Source: Gemmatimonadota bacterium
GTDB lineage: Bacteria; Latescibacterota; UBA2968; UBA8231
Direction of reading: 5' to 3'
Length of the DNA stretch: 17,176 nucleotides
Assembly: GCA_038153405.1 (NCBI GenBank)
Contig: JAYOYH010000079.1
Span: 1-17,176, forward strand
A program made the translations under genes and the position numbers. The stretch's first letter is position 1. The number at the start of each line of letters is the position of its first letter. This document shows positions 1 through 16,457 of the stretch, one piece after another. The notes beneath the pieces are model-generated. The model was not told the DNA's origin. It saw only the letters and a list, made by a program, of their open reading frames with translations, and did not search any database.

Positions 1-33
1 AGTGCGTTTAAATCCCACGGCAAATGAGTTGTG

Positions 34-2013
34 ATGGTGCGAAGTTCAATATTTGTATGGACATCGTTGCTGGTATGGATTTCCGTAGTGACGCTTTCTC
101 CCGTCTGCGCACAAGAGGTCTTTCTCGTCGGGTCTGCGGACAGGCCTTGGAACGAGTTTGGCACGACACCCGGCGGCGTTATCGCCTATGTGGAGGCGTT
201 AGGCGATGTGCGCGATTCGGCCGGCGAGACCGTATTTGTCGACGTCCCCGACTCGCTTGGCGGTTGGCTCATGCCCCTGCGCCTCAGCCCGGAGTTCAAT
301 ATTTCCTCTGACGTGTTCGAGCGCGGCGGCAGCATTGACGTGCCGATCTTGGCGCGCAGCGAAGTGGATCCGGCCGAGTTGGAGGGCGTGCTCAACGGCG
401 ACCACGCCGTCGCCTACGATCGCAAATTTGTCGCCGGGCGCATCGTGCGCAACAACGGTATCACCATTCGCCTCGACTTGGGTGCGCGATTTGGCGTAGA
501 CCGGATTGTTTTCTATCCCAGAATGACCGAACAATTTCCCTTTGTCAGCGACTATCTGCGCGGCTACGAAATCTATCTGAACGACGGTCAGCCGCAGAAT
601 CTCTTTGCCAGCGGCCAGCCGATCTTCACTTCGCCCATACTGCGCGAACCCGATAACCGCCAAGCTCGAGTGGACGTGGGCATCGAGGCGCAGTTCGTGC
701 GCTATGTGGAACTGAAGTCGATATCGCCGCTCGGTTTTGAAATTGACGAAATAGAAATTTACGGACGAGGCTTCGTGCCGACGGCGCGCTATGTCTCTAA
801 TGTCCTCGACTTGGGCGAAGACGTGGTTTGGGGGCAAATTAACTGGAACGAAGTATTTGCCGGCCGCGAAGATGACTCCGAACTCGAGATTCGCGTGCGC
901 AGCGGCAGCGATCTGACGCCCGACGTCTACTATCGCACCGTATCGGTCGACGGCGTCAGCCAGCTGCTGCCGACCAATAGCAACGGCGATACGTTGACCG
1001 AAGCTAGCTATATGCGGCTCAAGGAAAACGAACGCGGCCCCATCCGCGTCGATATCGCCAACTGGAGCCAGTGGCAGCTGGCCGGCAACGGCGTAGAGCT
1101 AAACGTGCCGGCACCGCGCCGCTACTTCCAGTTTAGCATCGACTTCACCAACCGCGATCTGACGGCGAGTAGGGCGGTGGCCGATCTGGGTTTCGAGTAT
1201 GAAAAGCCGCCCGTTGATCGCATCGTCGCCGAGATAGGCCCATCGCAGACGCAGGTGGGCGAGGAAACCACGTTCACTTACTTTGCGCGCGTGGTAAACG
1301 CCAGCGGGCGAGCCGGCTTTAGCCGCTTTGAAGTGGAGACGCCCGCGCGCGTGGCGGCTGTCCGTTCGGTCGAACTCTTTGACGCGCAGGGCAATGTGCT
1401 GGAGGCAGCCGATTTCTCTGCGGCCAATTTGAACGAGCTGCCCATAGTCGACGGCGCGCTGTCCATTGAAGAAGTAACAGGCAATAGCTTCGCGCTGGGT
1501 CTGCCACAGGTCAGCGCGGACGGCGCGCTGCTGAAAATCGTTTTTGACGCGGCGGTTTTTCGCTATGGCACCCGCTTTCAAGGGCGCGCATTCACCGACG
1601 CCAGCACGGCGATTCCCCTGCAGACTGAGGGGGGTAATGCGACGGCGGAACTGCAGACCGACGAGCTGCTGGTGCGGGTGACGGTGGGCTCGCAGGTGGC
1701 TGGGGCGCTGAGCGCTGTGCCGCGCGCCTTTACGCCCAATGGAGACGGCGTCAACGACGAGGTGCAGATCAGCTATACCGTGCTCCATCTGCTCGAGCCC
1801 TCACCGGCGACTGTGCGCATCTACGATCTGGCCGGCAGCGTCGTGCGCCAGTTCGATGCGGGGCAAGTGCAAAACGGGCGCAGCGAGCTGCGCTGGGATG
1901 GCAAAGGCGATGGCGGCCAACCGCTGCCTCCGGGCACGTATATAGTGCAGGTAGAAATTCGCTCAGACAGCAGTACCGAGAGCCGCGCGCACAGCGTGGT
2001 GATTGCTTATTGA
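34..2013 (+). CDS. Secreted protein, paralog A: discoidin/F5-8C-like domain, conserved central domain, C-terminal FlgD-Ig/T9SS type-B-like domain
   Basis: 659-aa ORF from ATG 34 (GTG 31 also possible). Signal peptide ends VCA|QEV. Discoidin-like pattern NGD...LDLGARFGVDRIVFYP...YVEL...IDEIEIYG. C-terminal FTPNGDGVND...IYDLAG...WDGKGDGG..LPPGTY...VVIAY. Clear paralogy with 5824-7662 and 9412-12060. Confidence 0.85.
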   Translation: MVRSSIFVWTSLLVWISVVTLSPVCAQEVFLVGSADRPWNEFGTTPGGVIAYVEALGDVRDSAGETVFVDVPDSLGGWLMPLRLSPEFNISSDVFERGGSIDVPILARSEVDPAELEGVLNGDHAVAYDRKFVAGRIVRNNGITIRLDLGARFGVDRIVFYPRMTEQFPFVSDYLRGYEIYLNDGQPQNLFASGQPIFTSPILREPDNRQARVDVGIEAQFVRYVELKSISPLGFEIDEIEIYGRGFVPTARYVSNVLDLGEDVVWGQINWNEVFAGREDDSELEIRVRSGSDLTPDVYYRTVSVDGVSQLLPTNSNGDTLTEASYMRLKENERGPIRVDIANWSQWQLAGNGVELNVPAPRRYFQFSIDFTNRDLTASRAVADLGFEYEKPPVDRIVAEIGPSQTQVGEETTFTYFARVVNASGRAGFSRFEVETPARVAAVRSVELFDAQGNVLEAADFSAANLNELPIVDGALSIEEVTGNSFALGLPQVSADGALLKIVFDAAVFRYGTRFQGRAFTDASTAIPLQTEGGNATAELQTDELLVRVTVGSQVAGALSAVPRAFTPNGDGVNDEVQISYTVLHLLEPSPATVRIYDLAGSVVRQFDAGQVQNGRSELRWDGKGDGGQPLPPGTYIVQVEIRSDSSTESRAHSVVIAY

Positions 2014-2036
2014 GCGCTGTTAGCAGGGAGGAATAC

Positions 2037-4700
2037 TTGAATACTCGATTATTTTTATACGTGCTGGCCGTGCTGTGGCTAGCTGCGACGACACAGCTGG
2101 CCCTCGCGCAGGATACCGGCACGCGCTTGGGCTCCGTAAAGCGGGGCGGACGAGTCGACTTTTCGCCCAAGGGCCCCGGCGTGCTCTTTGATGCGCTGGA
2201 CCCGGCCGTTAAGAAATGGTACGTGCCGCAGGAGCTGTACAACGAGTACCGCTGGATGCAGTGGCAGTACACTAACTACGCCCGCGAAAACTACCAGCGC
2301 TACGTCAACACGTCGCAAGAGGGCGATTACTTCTACGACATATACGGCAACTTCGTCACGCGCGGCTGGTTGGTATACGACTGGCAGCAGAATCGCCCAC
2401 AGCAGTTTGGCAGCGGCATTCTCAAGACCAACCGCTACAACACGTGGTTCGACAAGCTGATTATTGCATCCGACAGCAAGGGGCAGTATCACTACAGCTT
2501 GACCATCGGCGACGCGATCCGCACCACGCTGACGCCGATGACCTTTTCCAAGCCCGGCTTTAACGGCGTGCAGTGGGATTTTGCCGCCGATAAGTACTCG
2601 GCCACGATGCTGCTGGCTCGGCCCAGTCGGCCCGGCATTTCGACCTCGCTCGACATTCCCGACCAAAAGACCAGTGCCACCAATCTGCTGGGCGGACGCA
2701 GCGTCATACACGTCGGCGATTTCGTCGAAGTAGGCGCTACCTACTTGACGGCCTTTCAGACGCAGACGCTGCTGGACGATTTTAGCGGCAACCCCTTTAG
2801 CGGCGGTGCTCTGACGACCGACCAGAATGCGCTGCCCATTTCGCGCATCGTCATCCGCCTGGCCGATGACTCGCCGCAGGACGGCATTGGCGGCGCGGCG
2901 CTCTTCGATGATGAAATCATCATAAAGGACACCGAAGGCAATGTCTATCGCGGCAGCCAGATCAACTTCGAACCGATTCGCGAAGGCGGCTTTCAGCGCG
3001 TCGGCTACATATCGGCCGACGGCGATGAGCGCATTACGCTGACCTACGATTTTACCGACCCGGCCTATATTGGACCCGATCCATCGGTGATCGAAGAAGT
3101 CTCCTTTGAACTGGTATTGTCCAACGACTACCGGGTGGAAGTCACATCCGACCGCCAGACCAACATCGATTCGCAGCCAGTCTTTTTGCTGGTAGAGCGA
3201 GCCGATGGCAATATTCGCGACAACTCCAACCAGCGCTTGCTGAAGTTCGACTATGGCCTGCCGACGGCGAACGTCATCTTTGGCTTTACGCTGGAAGCAA
3301 CCAAAGTCTGGGGCTTTGATTTCTACGGTGAGTACGACTTTAATCGCCAGTATCGCCAATATCCCAACGTCAATCTCAACGATCACCATAAGGCGATTAA
3401 AAAAGCCGATGCGTGGATGTTCAACCTATCGCGGGTCGACGACCCGTTTTTTGCCTTTCTCGAAGCCTACAGCATGGACGACGCCTATTCGACGCGCACC
3501 TATTTAGCTGGCACCTTGCGCCAGGACGAGATCGACTACGAAGACGAGACATTTTACGTGTACGAGTTTGTCGACGACAACGACGATCAGGACCGGCGCC
3601 CCGACTGGACCCGCTTTGGCCAGCCGCTCGTCGACAACGCCGTGTTTCCCGGCCTGGACGAAAACAACGACTTCATATCGGACTTCAACCAGAACGACAC
3701 CGAGGACCGCGAGAACTTCGTGCCCGACTACGAGGAGCCCTTTTTGCGCTACCATTCGGACCGGCCCGAGTTCTTGTTTGGCATCGATATGAACAACAAC
3801 GGCTGGATAGACCGCTTCGAGAACGACGAAGAGCCCGACTATCCCTACGGGCGCGACCTTCGGGGTCGCAACGCGTATGCCGGCGTCATGATTTCGCCGG
3901 AGGCCAAGCTGACGGTGGGGTGGCTGGACGAGGAGCTGATCTCCGGCGACGGACGCAATCGCAGCGCCTATATGCTTTTTACCTACGAGCGCGACGTGGC
4001 CGATTTGGGGCGGGTGCGCCTCTATGAAAATCTCCGTCTGGTCGAAGACAATATTCCCGACAATCTCTTTCAGTGGGTGCAGCCGCCCAATTCGCGCGGC
4101 ACGCATCAGCGCATATTTGACCCGCTGCCCGCCAGAGACACTTGGATCAACACCACATATGCGCAGGTCGACTACCGCGGCCTATCGCATTTGAACATCA
4201 TCAACAAGCTCAAGTACGAGGTGTATAGCCAGCGCGAAGAACACGGCGATTTGCGCGGGACCTCCAGCTTTTTTGGCTTGATAAACAAGGCCGATTACAC
4301 CATTGAACTGGGGCAGATAGAAATCGAACCGCGCATCAAGAGCGAGTATCTGCGCCAGCGTCCCTTCAGCAGGCGCGATCCCAAGCGCCGGGAGCTGACG
4401 GAGACGCTCTTTCTCATCGCTCGCTTCCCGCTGCTGCGCCATACGCTAATTGAACTGGGGCTGGAACTATCGCATTTCGAGCAGTTCCGCGACAGAGACG
4501 GCGTGCCGCTGCACCGTGCGCTAGAGCCAGACTCGAACAGCCGGATACTGGCCGTTCAATTCGCCAATGCCGGCGACTATCTGGGCTATAAGCTGCATCT
4601 GCAGACGGGTATGCGCCTGCAAAAGCAGACGTTTGAGAATCTGCCGTCCAGCACGACGAGCACTATTTTCATGACGGCGTACGCCGGTTTGGAGCGATAG
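2037..4700 (+). CDS. Large secreted protein, probable outer-membrane beta-barrel with an acidic calcium-binding-like insertion
   Basis: Start reassigned to TTG 2037 because GGAGG lies at 2027-2031 and this gives the signal peptide MNTRLFLYVLAVLWLAATTQLALA|QD. Many alternating amphipathic strands (FDFYGEYDF, YMLFTYE, INKADYTIELG, IELGLEL, LHLQTGMRL, IFMTAYAGL). D/N-rich segment at 3525-3848. The CDS is secure; the barrel fold is inferred. Confidence 0.75.
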   Translation: MNTRLFLYVLAVLWLAATTQLALAQDTGTRLGSVKRGGRVDFSPKGPGVLFDALDPAVKKWYVPQELYNEYRWMQWQYTNYARENYQRYVNTSQEGDYFYDIYGNFVTRGWLVYDWQQNRPQQFGSGILKTNRYNTWFDKLIIASDSKGQYHYSLTIGDAIRTTLTPMTFSKPGFNGVQWDFAADKYSATMLLARPSRPGISTSLDIPDQKTSATNLLGGRSVIHVGDFVEVGATYLTAFQTQTLLDDFSGNPFSGGALTTDQNALPISRIVIRLADDSPQDGIGGAALFDDEIIIKDTEGNVYRGSQINFEPIREGGFQRVGYISADGDERITLTYDFTDPAYIGPDPSVIEEVSFELVLSNDYRVEVTSDRQTNIDSQPVFLLVERADGNIRDNSNQRLLKFDYGLPTANVIFGFTLEATKVWGFDFYGEYDFNRQYRQYPNVNLNDHHKAIKKADAWMFNLSRVDDPFFAFLEAYSMDDAYSTRTYLAGTLRQDEIDYEDETFYVYEFVDDNDDQDRRPDWTRFGQPLVDNAVFPGLDENNDFISDFNQNDTEDRENFVPDYEEPFLRYHSDRPEFLFGIDMNNNGWIDRFENDEEPDYPYGRDLRGRNAYAGVMISPEAKLTVGWLDEELISGDGRNRSAYMLFTYERDVADLGRVRLYENLRLVEDNIPDNLFQWVQPPNSRGTHQRIFDPLPARDTWINTTYAQVDYRGLSHLNIINKLKYEVYSQREEHGDLRGTSSFFGLINKADYTIELGQIEIEPRIKSEYLRQRPFSRRDPKRRELTETLFLIARFPLLRHTLIELGLELSHFEQFRDRDGVPLHRALEPDSNSRILAVQFANAGDYLGYKLHLQTGMRLQKQTFENLPSSTTSTIFMTAYAGLER

Positions 4701-4741
4701 ACATTACACTTGAGAGTCGGGTGCCAATCTGTTATTTTCTT

Positions 4742-4801
4742 TAGTGAGCGCCTGTTCGGATGGCTTTGCCCGTTGCTTAGCTGAATGAGCGGCGTTCACT
4801 A
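4742..4801 (+). other. Intergenic RNA stem-loop upstream of the TWGQIK protein gene
   Basis: TAGTGAGCGCC (4742-4752) pairs with GGCGTTCACTA (4791-4801), 11 bp with one G-U. The interior can form GGC-TTT-GCC (4762-4770) and GCTTA/TGAGC (4775-4790). Confidence 0.55.
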
Positions 4802-4846
4802 CTCTGTTCCCTGTTGCTTTCTCATCAAGGTGAAAGCTATCTGCAA

Positions 4847-4853
4847 AAGGAGG
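4847..4853 (+). promoter_or_regulatory. Strong Shine-Dalgarno sequence for 4858..5727
   Basis: AAGGAGG lies 4 nt upstream of ATG 4858. Confidence 0.8.
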
Positions 4854-4857
4854 CTGT

Positions 4858-5727
4858 ATGAAGAAGCTCAACGCATTGCTGGGGGCCGCGCTCGTTGCGG
4901 CGCTCGCGACGGGTCCGTCTTATGGACACCAGGGGGAAATGAAGTTCATGTTCCAGTTCCCCGATCACTTGACGCCTACGCTGGACGGCGATATGTCCGA
5001 TTGGGATATCGTCGGTGAGGTGTATCAGATCCAAGGCGAGACCATGTTCAACCAGTTTGGTGCTCCGATGGATCTGAGCGATTTTAACGCCAAGCTGATG
5101 TGGGGGTATAACCTCAGTGCCAACAAAGCCTACTACGGAGCGTGGATCAGCGACGATATGATCAACGATACGGAAAAATGGTCGACGACCACCGACTGGG
5201 ACCACTCGGGCGGCATCTTCCGTCGCTTTGATCAGGGCGATGAGTTCGAGGCGCGCTGGGCCAGCGCACAGGCGCAGCGCTACGACGTTGCGGCGCCGAT
5301 TTTCAGCTCGTCCGGTTACTACACTCGTATAATTGACGGTTCGAAAGCGTGGGCCGGCACCGACCCTTATCTGATGTGGGGCGGTCAGTTCCTGCGCGGC
5401 GATGTCAATACGTTCGAGCCAGCTGAAATGTTCACCGAGTATGCGATGGTGCCTTTTGATGACATTCATCCCGACGGCCCCGATGCCAGTATTGAGCACA
5501 AGTTTGCCGAGGGCCAGATCGTCGGTATCGAAGTGAACTGGGGCGACAAAGACGCCGATCCGGGCGCCTACGACGACGCCTACTGGTCGGGCTTTGGCGG
5601 CGTCGGTGCATCGGCAGACGCCGACCAGTTTGGCGACTACCTGCTGGCGCCGATTGAGGCGGGTCTGCCCACGGCTACGGCTGTCGAGACCAGCACTTGG
5701 GGTCAGATTAAGACGAGCCTCGACTAA
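4858..5727 (+). CDS. Secreted CBM9/DOMON-like sugar-binding-fold protein with a C-terminal TAVExxTWGxIK tail
   Basis: 289 aa with strong SD and signal peptide MKKLNALLGAALVAALATGPSYG. PTLDGDMSDW matches the PxIDGxLxDW start of CBM9/DOMON-like domains. EYAMVPF and GQIVGIEVNWGDKD resemble the later strands of that fold. Ends LPTATAVETSTWGQIKTSLD. Confidence 0.8.
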   Translation: MKKLNALLGAALVAALATGPSYGHQGEMKFMFQFPDHLTPTLDGDMSDWDIVGEVYQIQGETMFNQFGAPMDLSDFNAKLMWGYNLSANKAYYGAWISDDMINDTEKWSTTTDWDHSGGIFRRFDQGDEFEARWASAQAQRYDVAAPIFSSSGYYTRIIDGSKAWAGTDPYLMWGGQFLRGDVNTFEPAEMFTEYAMVPFDDIHPDGPDASIEHKFAEGQIVGIEVNWGDKDADPGAYDDAYWSGFGGVGASADADQFGDYLLAPIEAGLPTATAVETSTWGQIKTSLD

Positions 5728-5770
5728 GAGCGCGTCGCAGGCCTGTTGTGACAGGCGATCAATGTAGTGT

Positions 5771-5810
5771 GTGGCGGGGTTCGCGGGCGACTGTGGACCC
5801 CGCCGCTTTG
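5771..5810 (+). terminator. 16-bp stem-loop with GCGA tetraloop: weak terminator or mRNA-stabilising hairpin
   Basis: GTGGCGGGGTTCGCGG-GCGA-CTGTGGACCCCGCCGC (5771-5806) gives 16 contiguous pairs including 4 G-U, followed only by TTTG and then the next SD (AGGAGG 5812-5817). Confidence 0.7.
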
Positions 5811-5823
5811 TAGGAGGTGTGCG

Positions 5824-7662
5824 GTGAGACGGCTTTTTCTATGGACATCGGTTTGCCTGCTGGCTGTATCGGCCAGTGGACGCGAACACTATCAGTTGGG
5901 TGGAGCGACGGGCGTCCCTTGGTCGGCCGTGGGCACACCCAGTTTTATCGACGAGGTGTTCGCACCGGGCAGCATTCGCCCGTTGAGTACCGAACTGAGC
6001 CACAACCTCGTTAGCACGATGCGCAATCGGGGCGGCGATCTCACCAGCTTAGTTAGCATTTACACCCTGCCGGCGAATTGGCCCGATACGCGCGGCTTTG
6101 CCGTTGACGGAGATCCGGCTACGGCCTTTGTACATCCGCCGCGCATCGACTTTTTTCGACCGGGCTATTTCTACACCACGCCCATGTTCTTCGACTTGGG
6201 TGCGCCGTTCCCCATAGAGCGCGTGGTCTTTTCGACTCGTCCCGATCAGCCGGGCAATAAAATACGACGGTTTCGTTTCTATCTGAACGACGGCAGTGCC
6301 GAAAGTCGAGACGACAAAGGAAACATAGTGTGGACGCTCGTGCACGATGAGAAAGACAATCTCAACGCGCGCGTGGAGCTGAGCGTCGAGCCTCAGATCG
6401 TACGCCATCTCTACCTGCACCCTCTGGAAGTGGGAGACACTTGGGAAGTCGCCGAGTTTGAGGTGTACGGTCAGGGGTTTGTTCCCAAGGCATCGTATAT
6501 TTCTGATCCCATTGATTTGGGTGCGCTGTCGAGTTTAGGGCGGATATGGTGGAGCGGTCAACGCGATGCCAATTCTAAAGTTCTGATTCAGACGCGCAGT
6601 GGTAGCGACGATCAGCCCGAAGTGTATTGGCGCAAAACAGGCGTTGGCGACCAAGAAGTTTCGACGCTGGCCAGCGGGGCTCCCATGTCGCGCGCCGACT
6701 ATTTTTCCACGCCGCAAAACGTGCGCGGTCGCATTACGCAAGACCTGGAAAACTGGAGCGTCTGGCATACCTATGAGTACGAAGATGGGCTCGACGGCAC
6801 GCGCATACTGTCGCCGGGTCCGCGCCGATTCGTGCAGCTGCGCATCGACTTTTCATCGCAGGCTTTGCAAGGTGGTCAGATTGACTCGCTGTTCTTTGAG
6901 TATTCGCAGCCACCTCTTGTCGGTACAGTGATCGGCGAGATTCACCCTTCATCGGTCAACCCCGCTGAACAGGTCCAGTTTACCTACGCTATTCGCGCGC
7001 GAATGGATGCGGGCCTGTCGGGCTTCGATCAGCTGGAATTGCGCACTGCGGCGCAGGTGGAAAAGATTTCGGCCGTGCGCATTGACCGCCAAGAAGTCGA
7101 CTACAGCGCGGCACTCGACCCGGACGATCCCCATCAGTTCAGGGTGAATTTCCCTCGTATAGATCAGGACCAGACCCTGCTGGAAATCGACTTTGATGCG
7201 CGCGTATTCGTATACGGAACGGTCTTTAGCGCCTCAGTAGTCGACAGCGAGACGGACGAAGTCGGTCAGGAAGTGACCCCCGGCGATGCCGTGGCGGCGC
7301 TCTTGAGCGACGACATTGTCGTCCACACCGCGCTTGAGGGCCGTTTACTCGATGACGTATCTATGGGACCAAATCCCTTTACGCCCAACGGAGACGGCAT
7401 CAACGACCAGGTGCAAATTCGCTATGCGCTGTTGCGCCTGACTAGAGCGATGCCGCTGACGGTAGAAATTCGCGATTTAAACGGTCGCAAAGTACGCGAT
7501 TTGAGTAGCAATAGTGGCGCGGGAATGCTGTATCAGCTGACGTGGGACGGTCTCGACGATGAGGGTCAGATGGCTGCACCTGGTCTATACATAGTGCGCA
7601 TTGCCGTGGAGGCCGACAGCGGCAGCGAGGAAAAACTGGGCTATGTTGCGTTGGCCTATTAG
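5824..7662 (+). CDS. Secreted protein, paralog B: discoidin-like domain, conserved central domain, C-terminal FlgD-Ig/T9SS type-B-like domain
   Basis: Start reassigned to GTG 5824 (AGGAGG 5812-5817), giving signal peptide MRRLFLWTSVCLLAVSASG and 612 aa. Motifs AVDGDPAT, FDLGAPFPIERVVF, VAEFEVYGQGFVP, TRSGSD, NWSVW, PGPRR and PNPFTPNGDGIND...WDGLDDEG...PGLY...VALAY. Confidence 0.87.
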   Translation: MRRLFLWTSVCLLAVSASGREHYQLGGATGVPWSAVGTPSFIDEVFAPGSIRPLSTELSHNLVSTMRNRGGDLTSLVSIYTLPANWPDTRGFAVDGDPATAFVHPPRIDFFRPGYFYTTPMFFDLGAPFPIERVVFSTRPDQPGNKIRRFRFYLNDGSAESRDDKGNIVWTLVHDEKDNLNARVELSVEPQIVRHLYLHPLEVGDTWEVAEFEVYGQGFVPKASYISDPIDLGALSSLGRIWWSGQRDANSKVLIQTRSGSDDQPEVYWRKTGVGDQEVSTLASGAPMSRADYFSTPQNVRGRITQDLENWSVWHTYEYEDGLDGTRILSPGPRRFVQLRIDFSSQALQGGQIDSLFFEYSQPPLVGTVIGEIHPSSVNPAEQVQFTYAIRARMDAGLSGFDQLELRTAAQVEKISAVRIDRQEVDYSAALDPDDPHQFRVNFPRIDQDQTLLEIDFDARVFVYGTVFSASVVDSETDEVGQEVTPGDAVAALLSDDIVVHTALEGRLLDDVSMGPNPFTPNGDGINDQVQIRYALLRLTRAMPLTVEIRDLNGRKVRDLSSNSGAGMLYQLTWDGLDDEGQMAAPGLYIVRIAVEADSGSEEKLGYVALAY

Positions 7663-7672
7663 GGAGGGATGG

Positions 7673-9412
7673 GTGTTATTGGGGCGATCTCTACATCATG
7701 GATTTTTGGTCATTGGTTTTCTGCTCTTCGCGCTCTTATCTGCGGGATGCTCAGAACCCGTAGCCCAACTGCCGGTCGGTTCGGTCGCGCGGATCGATAG
7801 TACCTTGATTGAAGCCGACTACGTTCGCGCGTTTGTCGAGCGCATAGCGCCTGGTCTGCGCTCGACAAACACAGGGAACGATGCGCGGCGAGACTATCTG
7901 CGCAGCGTGCTGGCTCGGCACCTGTTGGAAATGGAAGCACGTGCGCGCGGGTTGCACGAGGACGAGGTGATACGCACCGAATTTCGCCGGCTGTGGCGCC
8001 AGCGCTTGATAGAGGCTTATCGCCGCCAAATACTCCCCGGCGAAGTAGAGATCAGCGACGAGGAAATTCGCGCCTACTTCGTCGAGAGCGGTCTGAATCG
8101 CCGCCGTCAGATGGCCGGTATTCTCGTAGAAGACGAGGCGCTGGCGCAGCGCGTCAGCCAAGAGCTGGCCGCCGGTGCCGATTTTGGTCAGATGGCTCGT
8201 GCGCACAGCATTGACGAGCGCTCGCGCGAGCAGGACGGCGTGCTGGGCTTTATCGATCTGCTTGAAGCGCGTCGCTTGCAGGTTCCCGATGCGCTTTTTC
8301 GCGACTGGCCTGCCGGAAAGATTTCCGACGTTCTGCCGATGGGGCGGCGCTTTCAGCTCATTCGCTTTGGGCCGGAGCAGCCGGTGCCCTACCAGGAGCG
8401 CCGCGCGGATATTTACGAGCTGCTCTACGGGCAGAAGTTCGGCGAGTTAGAAGAGCGCGAAGTCCAGCGCTTGGAGCGCAGGCTCGATCTGAAAATGGTG
8501 CCGCAGGGATTGGCGTTGCTGCTCGAAAAAGGCGATCTCTACACGCGCTTACGCAGTGAACAGCTCTCCGGGGAAGAGCACCAAGTAGCGTTGTTCACCT
8601 ATAAGGGTGGTCAGATTACGCTGGGCGACTACGTGGAGATTTTGAGTCGAGATATGCGCTCGCTGTCGGGTTGGGGGCTGAGTGACGAAGCGGAGGTGCG
8701 CGAGGTGGCCAGCGAACTAGTCTTGACGCAGGTCATGCTCTTCGAAGGTGCGAAGAGGGCGGGCATTGCCGATCGGCCCGCTGAAAAAGCGTGGGCGGAG
8801 AACACGCAGCGGCGGCTGTTGATTGAGGAGTTGCGCAAGCGCGAGATCGTCGATCCGCTGCTCGTAACGCGCCAGGAGGCCAGAAATTACTACGATGAGC
8901 ACGCAGAGCTGTTTGTGGAATCCGACGAGTATATTCTGGTGGAACTATTGGTCGACGACCAAGAAAAGGCCCGTGCGCTGCGCCAGCAGATCGACGAGGG
9001 CGAGACGATTTCCTCTTTGGCCCAGCAGCACACGCAGCGCGCCGATACCAAGGAGGAAGCGGGTCTCATGCATATGGGCGACTACGAGCGCCTGGCCATG
9101 CCGGAGTTGCACAAGGCCGTGACGCAGGCCGAGAAGGGCCAGGTCGTTGGACCCGTGAAGGTCAGGGAGGGCTATAGCTTGTTCAAGGTCATGGATCGCC
9201 AGATCGGTAAGCTGAAACCCTTTGACGAGGTCGAGCGCAAAGCCCGTGCGCTGGTGCGCGCCGAAAAGAAAGAAGTGCAGTTTGAAGATTGGATCGACCA
9301 ACTGATGGAAAAGTACGCAGAGCGTATCGTCGTATCGGAGGAAGCGTTGGTTGGTGCGCTGCCCGATACGTTCTTGACGCGTTTGGCCGTTGGCGATGGG
9401 AGCGATAAATAA
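7673..9412 (+). CDS. Lipoprotein foldase/chaperone with two parvulin (PpiC-type) PPIase-like domains, PrsA/SurA-like
   Basis: Start reassigned to GTG 7673 (GGGAGG 7662-7667). Lipobox LSAG-C with Cys at 7748. Duplicated architecture with ISDEEIRAYF...GADFGQMARAHSID...GVLGFI...GKISDVL and VTRQEARNYY...GETISSLAQQHT...GQVVGPVKVREGYSLFKV...KPFDEV. Confidence 0.85.
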   Translation: MLLGRSLHHGFLVIGFLLFALLSAGCSEPVAQLPVGSVARIDSTLIEADYVRAFVERIAPGLRSTNTGNDARRDYLRSVLARHLLEMEARARGLHEDEVIRTEFRRLWRQRLIEAYRRQILPGEVEISDEEIRAYFVESGLNRRRQMAGILVEDEALAQRVSQELAAGADFGQMARAHSIDERSREQDGVLGFIDLLEARRLQVPDALFRDWPAGKISDVLPMGRRFQLIRFGPEQPVPYQERRADIYELLYGQKFGELEEREVQRLERRLDLKMVPQGLALLLEKGDLYTRLRSEQLSGEEHQVALFTYKGGQITLGDYVEILSRDMRSLSGWGLSDEAEVREVASELVLTQVMLFEGAKRAGIADRPAEKAWAENTQRRLLIEELRKREIVDPLLVTRQEARNYYDEHAELFVESDEYILVELLVDDQEKARALRQQIDEGETISSLAQQHTQRADTKEEAGLMHMGDYERLAMPELHKAVTQAEKGQVVGPVKVREGYSLFKVMDRQIGKLKPFDEVERKARALVRAEKKEVQFEDWIDQLMEKYAERIVVSEEALVGALPDTFLTRLAVGDGSDK

Positions 9413-12060
9413 TGGCGACGAATCGGCGGACTCTCAGCGCTTTGATCGGCCTTGCACTCCTCGTTTTTGCGACGCCCCCGCTGGCCCAGTCGCGTGGCTA
9501 CAGCCTGCGCGCCGATCGAGTGGAGACGAGCAGCAGCGCGCACTGGCAGGCGTGGGGCTTTCCCGGCGACATGGTCGAGGTCGATGCGGACGGTGCGATC
9601 CGCTCGCGCTTCGTGCGCGGCCCGTACAATGCGCTGTCCGATGCGGGCCAGTATAACCATGCCATTGTCAGCAATGTGCGCAGTCAGTACAACAACGCCT
9701 TTGATCTGGACGGTGAACTGCGCACGCGCGGCGGCATCAAGCAGGCTCCGTCGAACCCCAACTTGGCCGCGCGCATCATGGACGGGGACGAGGCGACGTT
9801 CTGGGAGCCCAACCCGAACGATCCGCTGAGCAATTGGGTGTTGGAAATCGACTTGGGCCGCCTAGTATCGGCGAGAAAGGTCGTTCTGCGCTTCGCCGAA
9901 GAAGGCGATCCCTTTCTGCAGTTCAGGGTGCACTCGGCCGGCGGCCAGAACCCCTTTGGCACGGCGGATCGCAGCGGCGCGCTCGACTACGTATTGGTCG
10001 GTGGCACGACGCAGCCCAATCGCGACCAGCGGCTGTTCGAGTTCGACCTAGATCCCATCGGACCCCATTCAGACGGTTGGACGGGACGCATGGTGCAATA
10101 CGTGCGCATTGCGGTCACAGACACGCGCGCCGACCGCGCCGAAGAAGTTTCTGCAGAAGCGTACCAAGCGATGCCCGCCGGCGAGCGCGGAGCCGTCGAA
10201 TATATCTGGCGCATCGCCGACGAAGAGCGTTTGGTAAGCGAAGAGCGCTACGGACAGCTCACGGCGAACGAACAGGGCGGCATTCGCTACTTTCGCCGCG
10301 AATTGCCGCGCTTGGCCGAAGTCGAGGTCCAGACCGTTGGCGAGAATATCTCGCTGGGGCTCATAGGGCGCGGCGGCAGCTTGCACGACGTCAACCCCAA
10401 CGCCTCGCCGGAACTGGCCTTCGACGGCAATATGAGCAGCGAATGGTCCGGTGTGGTGTACGACATAACCGGTGAAACGGTCGAGTGGGGTTTGCTCAAC
10501 GTCGATCTGGGCGCTCACTTCCGCGTCAACGCCGTGCGCCTAGTAACGCGCCTGCTCGACGGAGGTGGCCGCGTGCTCTACGGCTATTTGCTGCGCGGTT
10601 CGGATGGAGCGCGCGCGCCAGACGGCAGCTTTATCTGGGAAGATTTGAGCGGCGAAGACCGCTTGCTCAACCAGAACACCCGGCTTTTTGAAGACCGCTT
10701 CGATTCGCGCGTCCTGCGCTTTTTGGAATTTCGCAACTTGGATATTGCCCGTCGCACGCTGGCTCATCTGGGCCACCGCGTTCCCAGCGTAGTCACCGAA
10801 ATAGAGGTCTACGCCGAGGGTTATTTGCCGAGGCTGGAGATGCAGTCCGGCCTCATCGATCTGGGCGCGGCCAAAAACCTGACGACAATAGACTGGCAGG
10901 CCGATCTGCCGCCCGGCACGGCGGTGGAAATTCGCACGCGCAGCGGCGATGATTTGCGCGAGGTCAAGAGCTACTTCAAGGCCGACGGCACGCAGGTGGC
11001 TAACGAAGAGGAATACAATAAGCTGCCGACGTTTTTCCAGGGCGAAGTACAAGTCGAATTGCAGCCGGGTCAGGGCTGGAGCAGCTGGAGTCAGGCCTAC
11101 GATGCGCCCGGCGCGCGCGTTCTTTCGCCCAGTCCGCGCCGCTACATGATGGTGCAGGCACGCCTCTTTAGCGACGCGCAAGACGCCGTGGCCACGCTGC
11201 GCTCCATCCAAGTTCACTTCACCCTGCCACTGGCCGAGCGCATCGTAGGTGAGATCGAGCCCAAGCAGGAGGTGCCCATTGGCGTGCCGGCGGAATTTGA
11301 GCTCTTTGTGCGTCCGTCGTTTGCCGCGCGCGATTCGGGTTTCGATCGCGTGCGCGTCGTGGCACCCTCGCGGGCGGCCATGCATTTGACCCGCGTAGAT
11401 CTGGGGCGCGCGAGCGAGTTGGCGGCGGCCATCGGCGATGGCTACGCCCGCCGCGATGACGGTGCCCTGGTCGATGCAGCGGGTGAGATACTGACGGTGA
11501 GCGGCCAGGGCACAGACTCGCTCTTTATCGAACTGCCCGAGGTCCAGCAGCGCGGTGGAGCAGAAGTGCTGCGTCTATCGTTTTCATCGACCGTGTATCA
11601 AAGCGGATCGACCTTTGCCGTCGAAGTGGGCAATTCGCAGAACCCGGACAACTGGCAAAGCGTGGATCCGGGCGAAGGCGTTGGCGACGAGCTGGCGGTG
11701 GGGGAAGGGCTTACGGTTCTGACGCCCTTAGACAGTCGCATGATCAAGATGATTGCCAGTTCTGCTCTACTGACGCCGAACGGAGACGGCATAAACGACG
11801 AAGCGGCTTTTGAATTTGCCGTGCTCAAGGTTAACGCCGCGCGTTCCGTACGCGTATCGCTCTTCGATCTTAGCGGCCGGGCGATACGCCGCATCGAGGA
11901 GAGTCGAGGGTTGGCCAACGGGCAGTACAGCCTGCGCTGGGACGGTCGCGATGAGGGGGGTGAGCTGGTGCCTCCAGGGCTATATATGGCCCGCATCGGC
12001 GTCGATAGCGACGGCGAACATAGCAGCGATGTCAGTCGGATTGTGGGCGTAGCCTACTAG
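9412..12060 (+). CDS. Secreted protein, paralog C: two discoidin-like domains, conserved central domain, C-terminal FlgD-Ig/T9SS type-B-like domain
   Basis: 882 aa. The ATG overlaps the upstream stop (TAATG at 9410-9414). Signal peptide ends PLA|QS. Two repeats: MDGDEATFW...IDLGRLV...LAEVEV and FDGNMSSEW...VDLGAHF...VTEIEVY. Also TRSGDD, GWSSW, PSPRR and LTPNGDGIND...WDGRDEGG..VPPGLY...VGVAY. Confidence 0.88.
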   Translation: MATNRRTLSALIGLALLVFATPPLAQSRGYSLRADRVETSSSAHWQAWGFPGDMVEVDADGAIRSRFVRGPYNALSDAGQYNHAIVSNVRSQYNNAFDLDGELRTRGGIKQAPSNPNLAARIMDGDEATFWEPNPNDPLSNWVLEIDLGRLVSARKVVLRFAEEGDPFLQFRVHSAGGQNPFGTADRSGALDYVLVGGTTQPNRDQRLFEFDLDPIGPHSDGWTGRMVQYVRIAVTDTRADRAEEVSAEAYQAMPAGERGAVEYIWRIADEERLVSEERYGQLTANEQGGIRYFRRELPRLAEVEVQTVGENISLGLIGRGGSLHDVNPNASPELAFDGNMSSEWSGVVYDITGETVEWGLLNVDLGAHFRVNAVRLVTRLLDGGGRVLYGYLLRGSDGARAPDGSFIWEDLSGEDRLLNQNTRLFEDRFDSRVLRFLEFRNLDIARRTLAHLGHRVPSVVTEIEVYAEGYLPRLEMQSGLIDLGAAKNLTTIDWQADLPPGTAVEIRTRSGDDLREVKSYFKADGTQVANEEEYNKLPTFFQGEVQVELQPGQGWSSWSQAYDAPGARVLSPSPRRYMMVQARLFSDAQDAVATLRSIQVHFTLPLAERIVGEIEPKQEVPIGVPAEFELFVRPSFAARDSGFDRVRVVAPSRAAMHLTRVDLGRASELAAAIGDGYARRDDGALVDAAGEILTVSGQGTDSLFIELPEVQQRGGAEVLRLSFSSTVYQSGSTFAVEVGNSQNPDNWQSVDPGEGVGDELAVGEGLTVLTPLDSRMIKMIASSALLTPNGDGINDEAAFEFAVLKVNAARSVRVSLFDLSGRAIRRIEESRGLANGQYSLRWDGRDEGGELVPPGLYMARIGVDSDGEHSSDVSRIVGVAY

Positions 12061-13609
12061 CCGTCAGGGTGACGACATCGTCGTAGAGCCGTCGCTCGCT
12101 GCCCTGGTAGGAGCCGTCTGCGGCAAAGAGCGGAAAGACGTATACGGGTTTGAGCGTGGCCTGCCAGCGCCCATCGGCAAGCGGTTGTACATCGACTTCC
12201 AAATGACCATAGTGCTTTCCACCGTCGACGAGCCCGCCGTCGCTCCAGCGCTCGGGAGCGTGCGTGTGCGCGAGAAAGGCCTGCTGTGGATTGACTAGGT
12301 CCTGTTGAGGGCCGCGCAGTCCATCGCCGCCGATGCCTATATCGTAAAAGTGCACAGTGTGCGGCACCTGCTCACCGCTTTTGACCACTTCCATCCCATC
12401 CACTTCGGAGCGCTCCCACATTTCATCGTGTCCGGCCAGTACGGCGTCGACTCCATAGCGCAGAAAGAGGGGCGTTAGGGCGCGCACGGGCACGCCCGAC
12501 TGCGCGTCAAAGCCCTCACCTTGCCCCGGTGGCCAGCCGTGTGGCCCGACTGAATAGGGCGTGTGATGAAACATCACGAAGGTGAAATGGCGCGTGCGCT
12601 GCGCGTCGTCCAGCTGCGCTTCGAGCCAGGTGTACTGCTGAGATCCGGGTCCGAAATCAGGGGCGTGGCCGCCGCCTTCGTCGTCCTCTCCCAACAGGAA
12701 GAAGTTGGTGTCGCCGGCCGATTGGTGCGGACTGCCGTTGGCCACGTCCAGCCCGATCAGGGCGATGGGGCCGTAGTCAAAGCGATAGTAGCGGTTTTGC
12801 TGCTGCGGATTGTTTGAGCCGTTGGCGGGGAATTCAAAATAGCTACAGAAGCGCCCAATGGCCCGCTCGGAACCGGGCTGGTCGTAGCGGTCTAGATAGG
12901 GGCCTTCGTAGTACTCGTGATTGCCCGGTACCGCTAGAAGGGGCACGCGGCTAGCCAAGCTATTCTCGCCGTTTTCCGCCGTGATATGCCGCCAAAACTC
13001 ATCCCAATCGCGCTGTTCGCCGCCCGATTCAACCAGATCGCCGGCAATGGCGATAAAATCGGGTTGGCGACTGGCGATGACCGCCAGGTTGGCCGCGTAG
13101 CCGTCGGTCTGGTCGAGCGGGTAGAGCCGTTTTCCATCGCGATTGGGATCGGCCCAGTCGGCGCGTTTGCCAGTCGATTCGGGTTCGGTCTCGCTGTCGC
13201 TAAAGGCGATAAAGCGGATGGGCTGGTCGACGAGCGGCGCCGTGGCGAAGGCGGCGCTAAAGACGGAGGCGCCCTGTTCCACAGTGTAGGTGTAGGTCGT
13301 CGCCGCCTGCAGGTTTTCCAAGCGCAAGCGGTGGCGAAAGGGCGCGGCCGGGGCCTGTCCACCAAAGAAGGTCGTGTCTTCCCAGGTCGTATACGCCAGC
13401 GCATCGGCGCGCTGCGGCGCGGAGTCCAGTGCGGATTCCATGGTTGAACCCTGCGCGCGGTAGGTCAGTTTCCCCGGCGTCTGCGCGTCGGAAAACCACA
13501 GGATCGTCGCGCCGTTTGTCGCGGCGTTTTGGACGTAGGGAACGATGCGGAAATCGGCGCCTAGGGCGAGCCCAGGAAGCAAGACGGCCAGTGCGAAGAG
13601 TAGGAGCAT
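12032..13609 (-). CDS. Secreted calcineurin-like metallophosphoesterase with N-terminal FN3/purple-acid-phosphatase-like domain
   Basis: Motifs FSDSE, AGDLVE, VPGNHEY, FHHTPYS and VLAGHDEMWER. N-terminal HRLRLENLQAATTYTYTV is FN3-like, preceded by a hydrophobic signal peptide. Start uncertain: ATG 13609, TTG 13618 or GTG 13639. Confidence 0.88.
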   Translation of the reverse strand: MLLLFALAVLLPGLALGADFRIVPYVQNAATNGATILWFSDAQTPGKLTYRAQGSTMESALDSAPQRADALAYTTWEDTTFFGGQAPAAPFRHRLRLENLQAATTYTYTVEQGASVFSAAFATAPLVDQPIRFIAFSDSETEPESTGKRADWADPNRDGKRLYPLDQTDGYAANLAVIASRQPDFIAIAGDLVESGGEQRDWDEFWRHITAENGENSLASRVPLLAVPGNHEYYEGPYLDRYDQPGSERAIGRFCSYFEFPANGSNNPQQQNRYYRFDYGPIALIGLDVANGSPHQSAGDTNFFLLGEDDEGGGHAPDFGPGSQQYTWLEAQLDDAQRTRHFTFVMFHHTPYSVGPHGWPPGQGEGFDAQSGVPVRALTPLFLRYGVDAVLAGHDEMWERSEVDGMEVVKSGEQVPHTVHFYDIGIGGDGLRGPQQDLVNPQQAFLAHTHAPERWSDGGLVDGGKHYGHLEVDVQPLADGRWQATLKPVYVFPLFAADGSYQGSERRLYDDVVTLTASRLRPQSD

Positions 13610-13622
13610 AGCCCTCAATATA

Positions 13623-14408
13623 CTAGCCGTATGCTCCACTGGGCAAAAAACCCAATAGCACCCGCAGGCGCTCGTCGGCGTTTGCGTAGACGTGCTCGGG
13701 CATCTGGTAGTTCATAAAGGGCGCGTACTTGTGGCCGATCAGGCGGCGCGCGTAGCTGATTTGCGTCATGTAGCGCGTGCGCTGGCTGTCGTTGGGGCCG
13801 CCGCGATGCCAGACCTGGTTGTTGAACATCACCACAGATCCGGCTGGTCCCAAGCACGATGCGACGTGGGCCTCATACGGCGTGCCTTCTATCGGGTTGG
13901 GTGGACTGGCGCCAAATAGGTGGGAACCGGGAATGCACTGGGTTGGTCCGTGTGCGACCTCATCGACGTCGGTCAAGTAGTAGTTGGCGGTGAAGAGCAG
14001 CACGGGCAGGCGCACGTTGCTGGGCGGCTCGCCGTGCGTGACGATGTAGTGCGAAGGATCGTCTTGGTGCCAGGTGCTCAGGCCGCCGCCGGGCGGCGTG
14101 CGGAAGCTGTTGTTGTGCACGACGTGCGTCGTCGTGGCGATCAGCGCCTCGGCAAAGGTGGCGATCGGCTCTATGTCAAATAGCGATAGGTTGGCGCTGC
14201 TGCGCTCGAACATGCGCGGCCGCAATTCGATGGCTCCGCCGGGCGGTGGTGGGTTTTCAGCCAGTGCGTCGTCCAGGTCGTCGCGCAGCGTGGCGACGAG
14301 GTCGGGAGGAAGCACGCTGCGCAGAAATAGAAATCCGTCCCGGTGAAATTGCTCAACCCATTCTGCAATTTGACGCTCGTCAGCCGTGATCATCGATCTA
14401 TTCGCCAT
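13623..14408 (-). CDS. Phytanoyl-CoA dioxygenase (PhyH) family Fe(II)/2-oxoglutarate dioxygenase
   Basis: FHRDGFLFL, WHQD (HxD), YYLTDV...GPTQCIPGSH, GPAGSVVMFN..VWHRGGPN...R. Start reassigned to ATG 14408 (MANRSM, AGAAGG upstream), which removes the overlap with the divergent gene. 261 aa. Confidence 0.9.
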   Translation of the reverse strand: MANRSMITADERQIAEWVEQFHRDGFLFLRSVLPPDLVATLRDDLDDALAENPPPPGGAIELRPRMFERSSANLSLFDIEPIATFAEALIATTTHVVHNNSFRTPPGGGLSTWHQDDPSHYIVTHGEPPSNVRLPVLLFTANYYLTDVDEVAHGPTQCIPGSHLFGASPPNPIEGTPYEAHVASCLGPAGSVVMFNNQVWHRGGPNDSQRTRYMTQISYARRLIGHKYAPFMNYQMPEHVYANADERLRVLLGFLPSGAYG

Positions 14409-14464
14409 GCGCGGCCTTCTTTTATACCTTAATTTGCAATAATGAAGAATGAAAGGATATCGCC
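14409..14464. promoter_or_regulatory. Short AT-rich divergent intergenic region between the PhyH and DsbA-like genes
   Basis: 56 bp, strongly AT-rich relative to its flanks. Contains SD-like elements for both genes (GAAAGGA on +, AGAAGG on -). No convincing -35/-10 pair. Confidence 0.45.
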
Positions 14465-15274
14465 ATGCCCACGCTAGCAAGCTTTGCGGCTTTTGCCGCT
14501 TTTTTTGTAGCCGGTTGTGCGCCGAGCGCCGAGCAAATTAAGCATCTTTTGGCGGAGAATCCAGAGATACTTACCGATGTGATAAGAGAAAATCCACAGG
14601 TGGTATTTGACACTATCGAGAAAAACCCGGAGCGGTTTATGGCCGCGGTCAACGCGGCGGCTCAGGTTGCGCGCGCGCGCGCGCAGGCCGAAGAGGAGCG
14701 CCGCGAAACGGAGCAGCGCGAGGTCGAATTCGATAATCCTAAGCAGCCCGAACTAGCCGTTGGTCGCGTGTACTGGGGTCAAGCGCAGGCGCGCATTACC
14801 ATCGTCGAGTACTCGGATTTTGAGTGCCCCTACTGCGCGCGCGGCTACCGCACCGTAAAAGAGCTGATGGCCGAGTATGGCGACGATGTGCGATTGCTCT
14901 ACAAGCACCTGCCGCTGGAAATGCACGAAGGCGCCCTGCCGGCGGCACTTTACTTTGAGGCCATAGCGCTACAGTCGGACAGCGCGGCGCGCCAATTTCA
15001 CGATGCGCTCTACGAAAATCAGGGACAGCTGCGCGCGCAGGGAACGGCGTGGATGGATGAGGTGGCGCGCGGCTTGGGGCTCGATATGGCGCGCCTGCAG
15101 GTCGACGTCGAGTCGGACGCTGTGCGGAGGCGAGTCGAAGCAGATATGGAGGAAGCCGCCTCGTTTGGCTTTACCGGCACGCCCGGCTTTCTGATCAACG
15201 GTGTATCGCTAAAGGGGGCCTATCCGGCGTCGGCTTTTAGAACGATTATCGATCGCCAATTGGGCACCCCATAG
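14465..15274 (+). CDS. DsbA-family thioredoxin-fold lipoprotein (Com1/BdbD-like)
   Basis: IVEYSDFECPYC active site, YKHLPL, and FTGTPGFLING cis-Pro loop. Lipobox VAG-C. N-terminal LAENPEIL helical segment typical of Com1/ScsC-like DsbA proteins. SD GAAAGGA. Confidence 0.92.
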   Translation: MPTLASFAAFAAFFVAGCAPSAEQIKHLLAENPEILTDVIRENPQVVFDTIEKNPERFMAAVNAAAQVARARAQAEEERRETEQREVEFDNPKQPELAVGRVYWGQAQARITIVEYSDFECPYCARGYRTVKELMAEYGDDVRLLYKHLPLEMHEGALPAALYFEAIALQSDSAARQFHDALYENQGQLRAQGTAWMDEVARGLGLDMARLQVDVESDAVRRRVEADMEEAASFGFTGTPGFLINGVSLKGAYPASAFRTIIDRQLGTP

Positions 15275-15290
15275 CGCCGCTGCAGGTGCG

Positions 15291-16457
15291 CTACTCGCGC
15301 TCTAGCGATAGCGTGTAGAGCCGTTCGTCGGGAACCATGTTCAGGCGCAGGCGGTTTTCCTCTACGACAAAGCGCTCCTGCCCGGCCACCGGCGTTGGCG
15401 TAATGCGCACGCTGCGCACGCCCAGGTCGGAGTTAAACTGAAAATCGAGCGTCAGTGGCTCGTCGTATACGTCGTTGTCCAATCCGTCGCCAATAAAGAG
15501 TTCAAACGAATCGGGCATCTGGTTGCCAAAGAAGCGCGCTATTTGAATGTCTAGGGCATTGCGCTCTTGGATGTAGGCGGCTACGGAGGCCAAGTTGCCG
15601 CTCCAAAAGTCGTTGGCTCTAATAAAGTCGAGATCGCGCACGAACTCGACGTAGGGGTAATAGCCCCATCCCTCCGGATAGCCTATGGAATGGTAGGTCA
15701 TAATGGTCCACGCGCGGCGCCGCAGCGTCTGGATGAGAATGGGCTGCAGCTGGTTGTGCGTGCTCGGATCGCGCGTGCTGGCGTTGCCCATGATGACGGA
15801 GGGCAGGTTGTGCCAGTGATCCGGCTCGCGCACGCCGTCGGCACAGATGTAATAGGCGCTCGGATCGCGCGTGCCGCCGCGTGCGGCGATAAACCCAGCT
15901 TGGCGATTGGCCGCCTGCGTTTGCGCATCGCGGCCGGCAAAGAGCGGGTAGGCGTAGACCTTGGGTTTTAAACCCCAGGCGCGCATCAGGGAAAAGTTGG
16001 TGCGGAACGATTGGTAGGCGGCGTGATAGCCAAGCGCGTCGTGGTCTATGTGCGAGTGACCGTGTCCAAAAAAGCCAATACCGCGCGGCATCAACTCCGT
16101 GCGCATGCGCTGCGTGATGGCGATGCGCTTGAAGTGGGAGAGCTTGTTGCTGACAATCTCCACGTCCATCGACAGACCGCGGGCAATGGCCGCATCCGTG
16201 GCCAGCGAGAAAACGGGATCGATGCCCCATGGCGCATCGTAGGTGATCGACACGGCGGCGCGGCGGCCGTCGCGCCACTTGGGGGCCGTGATGTTAAAGA
16301 CTTCTTGGCCCTGATGGCTGGCGGTGAAGACGGCCGGCGCCGCATCGACGAGCTTGCCGACAGGAACCGGCGCTTCCGGTCCGGCCAGACGGGTCGCATC
16401 TTCGCAGCTACAGAGGGCCAGCAGTAGAGCCAGCGATGATATAAATAGACGCAACAT
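15291..16457 (-). CDS. Polysaccharide deacetylase (CE4/NodB-like) family lipoprotein with a C-terminal beta domain
   Basis: Lipobox-like LCS-C. KWRDGRRAAVSITYD (TFDD-equivalent), HGHSH, YAYP, WTIMTYH, and the C-terminal VAAYIQER...YDEPLTL typical of this subfamily. Confidence 0.82.
   Translation of the reverse strand: MLRLFISSLALLLALCSCEDATRLAGPEAPVPVGKLVDAAPAVFTASHQGQEVFNITAPKWRDGRRAAVSITYDAPWGIDPVFSLATDAAIARGLSMDVEIVSNKLSHFKRIAITQRMRTELMPRGIGFFGHGHSHIDHDALGYHAAYQSFRTNFSLMRAWGLKPKVYAYPLFAGRDAQTQAANRQAGFIAARGGTRDPSAYYICADGVREPDHWHNLPSVIMGNASTRDPSTHNQLQPILIQTLRRRAWTIMTYHSIGYPEGWGYYPYVEFVRDLDFIRANDFWSGNLASVAAYIQERNALDIQIARFFGNQMPDSFELFIGDGLDNDVYDEPLTLDFQFNSDLGVRSVRITPTPVAGQERFVVEENRLRLNMVPDERLYTLSLERE

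Follow-up and report, generated by a model that had tools for sequence, protein, structure and literature searches.

A short C-terminal tail on small exported proteins of Latescibacterota, a candidate sorting signal for the T9SS sortase PorU

RESULTS

The tail-bearing gene and its surroundings

The window, i.e., the whole 17,176-nt stretch of contig JAYOYH010000079.1 that was analyzed, carries a gene whose 289-aa exported product ends ...IEAGLPTATAVETSTWGQIKTSLD-stop (Table 1). The phylum-named records among its 51 homologues are labeled Latescibacterota or Gemmatimonadota, from which the source genome likely belongs to Latescibacterota. Alignment of the query with 49 of the 51 homologue matches (50 rows) revealed a variable N terminus followed by a conserved H24, before which the signal peptide would be cut; residues 2 to 17 form a helix in the AlphaFold model. 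The model used was alignment based (mean pLDDT of 81.7); single-sequence folding gave a pLDDT of 31. Foldseek returned the CBM9 entry 1i82 as the best match of the passenger domain (E value of 1.5e-8, 13% identity), a likeness of fold. The 289-aa protein itself gave no Pfam match; relatives do give CBM9_1 matches.

Table 1. Features of the tail-bearing gene and its neighborhood
Feature	Coordinates	Strand	Basis
660-aa protein with type-B-like (TPNGDG) CTD, no TAV linker	31..2013	+	Profile matches
896-aa putative outer-membrane protein, one of 23 paralogues	2010..4700	+	Paralogue and distribution searches
Gene for 289-aa exported protein with tail	4858..5727	+	ORF list and 51 homologues
Likely Sec signal peptide, residues 1-23	4858..4926	+	Basic start, hydrophobic stretch
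CBM9/DOMON-like beta-sandwich passenger domain, approximately residues 24-265	4927..5652	+	AlphaFold, Foldseek
Flexible P/G/T/A linker, residues 266-273	5653..5676	+	Length varies among homologues
T-A-V-E, predicted PorU cleavage site between T274 and A275	5677..5688	+	Motif likeness
[ST]-W-G-x-[IV]-K-x-x-[FYL], predicted recognition element replacing the CTD	5695..5724	+	Conserved positions
Type-B-like CTD protein; true start probably near 5825	5767..7662	+	Profile matches
16-pair intergenic RNA hairpin past the tail-gene stop, not part of the signal	5771..5806	+	z of -3.28, 103-nt region
PpiC-type (SurA/PrsA-like) peptidyl-prolyl isomerase	7601..9412	+	Profile matches
882-aa F5/8-type-C protein with type-B-like CTD	9412..12060	+	Profile matches

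Nucleotide 5671, where the original prediction of a C-terminal mini-tail began, belongs to T272; the sequence in its title, TAVETSTWGQIKTSLD, begins at 5677. The exact motif is kept in 46 of the 50 aligned rows, with shifted spacing in 3 more and an early end in the remaining one. Residues 275 to 289 have pLDDT values of <50, and a paralogue in the source genome (G000:C5:72952-73863) ends without the tail. The tail thus stands outside the passenger fold, as expected for the separate tag that had been predicted. Longer passenger forms bearing a CTD instead of the tail were sought and not found, which counts as weak evidence. Upstream of the gene, at 4710 to 4738, lies a weak sigma-70-like site at chance level; with this site and the downstream hairpin, the tail gene may be expressed above its neighbors. 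Unrelated neighbors occupy 12032 to 16457: a secreted metallophosphoesterase (-), a PhyH dioxygenase (-), a DsbA-like thioredoxin (+), and a 388-aa protein without a family match (-).

The tail is a recurring C-terminal module

Three counts in the source genome (4.86 Mb, 93% complete) place the motif at protein ends. In its six-frame translation, 14 of 16 matches to [ST]WGx[IVLM]K had a stop no more than 15 residues away; of 4102 genes from a crude gene call, 17 encode W[GA]x[IVLM]K among their 22 C-terminal residues, versus 0.7 expected; and a tail profile, seeded on 13 of its own 20 matches, scored >12 bits in 20 places, all C-terminal and one per protein. By a crude hydrophobicity rule, 18 of these 20 proteins have a signal-peptide-like N terminus, versus 736 of 2629 genes of similar length (28%). 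A GTDB scan with TAV[EQ]xx[ST]WGx[IVLM]K yielded at least 120 loci, and among those listed 116 of 120 have a stop within 15 residues, the other four being two matches cut by the sequence end and two internal chance matches. The terminal tail is real and far above chance in the source genome, and its enrichment in signal-peptide proteins, likewise anticipated by the original prediction, is supported. When the pattern was loosened and the stop position left free, matches stayed at chance level. Record titles of the listed GTDB matches name mainly Latescibacterota, Gemmatimonadota-labeled bins, Eisenbacteria, Handelsmanbacteria, and Coatesbacteria, and none among those listed names Bacteroidota.

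Pfam matches were obtained for 27 of the 56 tail proteins scanned and fell into approximately 15 unrelated families, including CBM9, fasciclin, YHYH, LTXXQ, FGE-sulfatase, NHL, beta-helix, CHRD, Cache, and LTD. Fasciclin, a common domain, was found also together with PF18962 in a search with that domain, and comparison of tail-protein bodies with the bodies of CTD proteins of the source genome returned only four weak pairs. Within the tail, W and G/K are near-invariant, and 91 of 109 tails have a hydrophobic residue at W+7, a position outside the search pattern. The tail is a real, modular, terminal element carried by many unrelated small exported proteins. None of the NCBIfam models matched any of 48 tails at E values up to 1, the tail retrieved no more than two leads from the Atlas, both under 0.9, and no description of it appeared in the result listings of literature searches.

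The front of the tail resembles a PorU cleavage site

The source genome encodes 106 CTD proteins, which we divided into 42 type-A, 51 type-B-like, and 13 that fit neither class. A TAV located 18 to 21 residues ahead of PNPF is present in 19 of the 42 type-A CTDs, versus 0.5% of control windows, and in none of the 51 type-B-like CTDs; a looser motif raises the type-A count to 21. At the T-A-V positions, the 20 tails of this genome have T/S in 20, A in 16, and V/I in 20. The linker proposed to be common to tails and T9SS CTD proteins was thus recovered, on the type-A side. The motif fits what excerpts of the PorU literature report: the Porphyromonas gingivalis PorU consensus is given as X/(GSA)(VLI), with EGT/SIA and EPT/ATE as examples (PMC4560394), and T9SS cut sites T/SL and T/GI are given alongside short CTDs of 43 to 55 aa (PMC11969387). 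In the excerpted text of PMC9143113, a P. gingivalis type-B CTD is reported to be uncleaved, with which the missing TAV of the type-B-like CTDs agrees. CTD cleavage has also been called sequence independent (PMC4804311), which counts against a strict dependence on the motif. By its sequence match, the front of the tail fits a PorU-type cut site.

The tail further resembles the type-A CTD (TIGR04183, PF18962) handled by PorU (NF033707; 6ZA2) in pairing a signal peptide with a C-terminal signal on diverse passengers, in a genome that encodes SprA, PorU, PorV, and a PorZ-like protein. However, only about 15 residues follow the predicted cut, versus 70 to 110 in type-A CTDs; the tail protein matches neither TIGR04183, PF18962, nor PF13860 and has neither a beta-sandwich CTD nor CTD motifs; and tail passengers are small. 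Lacking a folded CTD, the tail falls outside the type-A family, yet at the sortase step its mode of action appears to be that of a type-A CTD. The nearest precedent is provided by the short CTDs of Prevotella intermedia, a reduced signal that is cleaved and glycosylated according to excerpts of PMC11969387. Those are, however, three-stranded sheets of 43 to 55 aa with motifs B, D, and E, and the tail is a third as long with another motif. In the published accounts seen in excerpt, including that one, short T9SS signals are folded beta-sheets of at least 40 residues.

With TAV, the opening of a CTD linker, at its front, the tail might be the functionless stump of a lost CTD, or else part of the fold, for which it can be said that low pLDDT is only weak evidence to the contrary. 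We give this the slimmest chance of all readings. WGxIK does not occur in the CTD linkers of the 44 tail-bearing genomes described below, where no tail precedes a CTD in tandem (exact PNPFN, gap of 6 to 36 nt), and the tail is conserved across phyla on unrelated folds. The terminal position of the GTDB matches, the unrelated Pfam domains, and the tail-less paralogue largely refute it.

Tails, TAV linkers, and PorU are absent together from one clade

Tail-bearing genomes (n = 44) were picked from the GTDB scan; this set and a 151-genome sample of the phylum are not mutually independent. All 44 contain the tail pattern (1 to 71 matches each; control, 0 to 1) and a C25 peptidase, and 41 have SprA. 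In the phylum sample, where f1 is the family of the source genome and f2-f4, f6, f8, and f10 are other families, the strict pattern was found in 66/66 genomes of f1 and 13/13 across eight small families, and elsewhere in 5/56 of f2-f4, 0/4 of f8, and 2/11 of f10. PorU was detected in 65 of 66 f1 genomes, in 28 of 28 from other classes, and in none of the 56 f2-f4 genomes. The latter retain SprA (55/56) and mostly a C25 match (53/56; predominantly a long paralogue of approximately 1900 aa among the matches listed), and all five f2-f4 genomes tested keep a PorV orthologue and 6 to 22 CTDs.

The few tail matches in f2-f4 do not behave as tails: none of the five strict ones ends a protein, and a looser pattern gave 115 matches in the 56 genomes versus 79 for the control, i.e., near chance, with no real tail among 36 inspected. 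A Met-less 79-aa segment in one genome (G190) looks like a tail relic. The linkers are mostly missing as well. A loose TAV match was found in 1 of 27 rows of type-A CTDs from f2-f4 (two rows being duplicates), and [ST]AV...PNPFN occurs 0 to 2 times per genome, versus 3 to 44 in f1. Families f8 and f10 combine a Cys-type PorU and mostly TAV linkers with few tails; 5 of 10 f10 loci that were read are real variant tails, with D-V or A-V, and one real variant tail was found in f8.

In a SprA tree (37 rows, FastTree), f2-f4 form one clade, sister to f1. Tail, TAV linker, and PorU vanish together in these families, and SprA, PorV, and CTDs stay. Since f2-f4 form a single clade, only one co-loss is represented, to which every gene lost alongside PorU fits equally well. 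Since the tail-less clade retains both, we rejected PorV and SprA as sufficient on their own. Genomes of f2-f4 such as G071, G099, G155, and G190 have SprA, PorV, 7 to 16 PorV-family paralogue matches, and type-A CTDs, with no canonical PorU. Judged from gene content, f2-f4 would represent a natural sortase-less T9SS, whose CTD proteins apparently carry no cleavage linker.

The joint absence also bears on whether the tail depends on the T9SS at all. In the PEP-CTERM, IPTL-CTERM, and LPXTG signals, a short C-terminal motif recurs on exported domains of many unrelated kinds and precedes a transmembrane helix and a basic tail. The tail is likewise reused across unrelated exported domains, but it has no transmembrane helix. 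A T9SS-independent envelope anchor, either an amphipathic membrane helix or an exosortase/rhombosortase-type signal, with retention of the passenger in the periplasm, would suit the W0/I+3/F+7 spacing, which fits a helix, and the K/R that flank these positions. A likeness of the tail WG to that of IPTL-CTERM stands on the same side. LTXXQ and Cache passengers are typically periplasmic, which favors such an anchor and counts against a sorting signal. Size favors it too, all 20 tail proteins of the source genome having 153 to 452 aa versus >470 aa for most of its 106 CTD proteins, a difference that may alternatively reflect a possible size limit of the route. Helicity, which the original prediction proposed, is less clear from the mean hydrophobic moment of the tails, 0.40 at 100 degrees (helix) versus 0.51 to 0.56 at 160 to 170 degrees (strand), and the AlphaFold model leaves the tail unstructured. 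We regard the anchor as quite unlikely: the tail contains no hydrophobic or transmembrane segment, none of the 48 tails matched NCBIfam, and the fixed W, G, and K point to recognition by a protein. The anchor also leaves unaccounted for a TAV common only with type-A linkers, as well as the absence of the tail in the PorU-less clade.

The putative 896-aa outer-membrane protein is not a general tail receptor

The original prediction nominated the barrel and CTD paralogues of the operon as receptors of the tail. In the source genome, 8 of the 20 tail genes have a same-strand paralogue of the 896-aa protein no more than 8 kb away, and for 4 of them it lies within 200 bp; this protein family, like the passenger family, was not found in any of the five PorU-less f2-f4 genomes tested. 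PorU and the 896-aa protein are accordingly told apart only by comparison with other phyla. Among the 44 tail genomes, the query used found the 896-aa family in 22 and failed to find it in 22, some of which have 36 to 41 tail matches. PorU exceeds the NCBIfam cut-off in 20 of these latter 22; its scores in the remaining two are 396 and 271 bits. Furthermore, 12 of the 20 tail genes have no 896-aa paralogue within 8 kb on their strand, and 18 of the 23 paralogues have a type-B-like CTD gene no farther than 3.5 kb away, versus only 6 of 23 that lie near a tail gene. A co-encoded receptor is therefore highly improbable; of the co-occurrence proposed with the barrel or T9SS genes, the association with the sortase was retained and that with the barrel was not. 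The distribution points to PorU, encoded away from the operon.

The 896-aa protein, for which no Pfam or NCBIfam match was obtained and whose nearest named Atlas cluster, DUF6029 at 0.89, is a lead only for a barrel fold, is likely a partner of type-B-like CTD proteins. This arrangement recalls the type-B CTD and its PorP/SprF shuttle (TIGR04131; PMC9143113 and PMC12618676), the operon neighbors being TPNGDG CTD proteins without TAV beside a dedicated outer-membrane protein. Unlike type-B substrates, tails have no TPNGDG-type CTD and are mostly unlinked to the barrel-like gene, and the 896-aa protein is far larger than PorP. The closer association of its paralogues with type-B-like CTD genes than with tail genes suggests that some passengers work in cassettes without the barrel reading their tail. 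One such repeated cassette, seen at 31 to 12060 and at paralogous loci of the source genome, comprises type-B-like CTD proteins, a protein of approximately 900 aa, a PpiC isomerase, and often a CBM9-like tail protein; among the genomes searched, it was found only in those of Latescibacterota type.

A serine replaces the catalytic cysteine of PorU in the source family

The source genome encodes SprA (606 bits; cut-off, 200), PorU (665 bits; cut-off, 420) at G000:C91:1334-5065, an adjoining PorV-family gene (257 bits; cut-off, 90), and a full-length PorZ-like protein that scores below the cut-off. PorM and PorP were not found by a search run without a positive control, so that this T9SS possibly has no known motor. 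Excerpts of PMC4560394 describe Cys690 of P. gingivalis PorU as essential, its replacement by Ala abolishing the enzyme. In the alignment to 6ZA2, Ser806 takes the catalytic Cys position, for which we infer a two-residue numbering offset relative to Cys690. Among 41 aligned PorU sequences, 24 have Ser at this position (23 of f1 and 1 of f6; codons AGC/AGT), i.e., every f1 and f6 sequence, and 17 have Cys, including those of tail-bearing lineages outside f1 and f6. The His of the known Cys-His dyad is kept; Ser806, His771, and Arg839 are invariant among the Ser forms. From these residues, the Ser-type PorU would be either a serine sortase or a pseudo-enzyme that binds tails and TAV linkers without cutting.

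The second option corresponds to a reading in which TAV and WGxIK dock noncovalently on a pseudo-enzyme PorU, or on a factor lost with it, tethering or carrying the passenger with no cut. It predicts the same co-loss with PorU in f2-f4, accommodates the Cys-to-Ser change in 24/24 f1 and f6 sequences, and gains from the SprA tree, in which Ser-PorU lineages surround the PorU-less clade, as if function had decayed first. We nevertheless hold it to be unlikely: Cys is kept in the tail-bearing lineages outside f1 and f6 (17 of 41), the three invariant residues suggest a maintained active site, and dozens of passengers would need to be held by the product of one PorU gene.

Proposed route and significance

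We consider it fairly probable that the tail is a CTD-less PorU sorting signal, made of a cut site and a short recognition element, that leads to covalent surface anchoring. Following presumed Sec export to the periplasm, the tail protein would cross the outer membrane, probably via SprA, with W-G-x-I-K-x-x-F as the minimal signal or riding on PorU or another CTD-bearing carrier. The same element would dock on PorU or a PorU-linked factor, and PorU would cut between T and A of T-A-V, freeing a peptide of approximately 15 residues. Transpeptidation might then link the passenger to an LPS-like acceptor, a cell-surface glycan; in the source family, the nucleophile of PorU would have to be serine. 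Against this sorting signal stand the Ser at the catalytic Cys position, which means that cleavage in f1 and f6 may not occur, the single co-loss event, the scarcity of tails in f8 and f10 despite a Cys-type PorU, the folded state of the short T9SS signals in the accounts cited, the failure to find PorM and PorP, and the unexplained passage of 15 residues through SprA. A broader claim, that a 15-residue peptide without a folded CTD constitutes a third class of T9SS signal, sufficient for SprA export and PorU anchoring in several uncultured FCB-related phyla and served by a Cys-to-Ser sortase in the source family, is put forward as a tentative possibility.

New here are the TAV common to tails and type-A CTD linkers, the joint absence of tail and PorU in one clade, and the finding that the barrel is not a general receptor. 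The T9SS signals known so far, all from work on Bacteroidota, are folded domains. If PorU does sort by the tail, these 15 residues would be the smallest known substrate tag of a Gram-negative sortase, with the cut site separated from the recognition element, and could be used as a compact tag for surface display. The tail would also provide a simple rule for the likely surface proteome of abundant uncultured bacteria, whose genomes contain up to approximately 70 strict matches each. With the PorU-less clade and the Ser-type PorU, what was an unexplained motif becomes a claim open to direct testing.

The source genome encodes a second, longer C25 peptidase (G000:C48:5674-11277; approximately 1860 aa) that is PorU2-like and has its Cys intact. 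This long paralogue was rejected as the tail partner: the PorU-less clade, which has no tails, retains it, and in several tail-rich genomes the short PorU is the sole C25 protein. At the other extreme, genomes G020, G022, G024, G029, G030, and G040 each encode 21 to 35 C25 (gingipain-family) peptidases.
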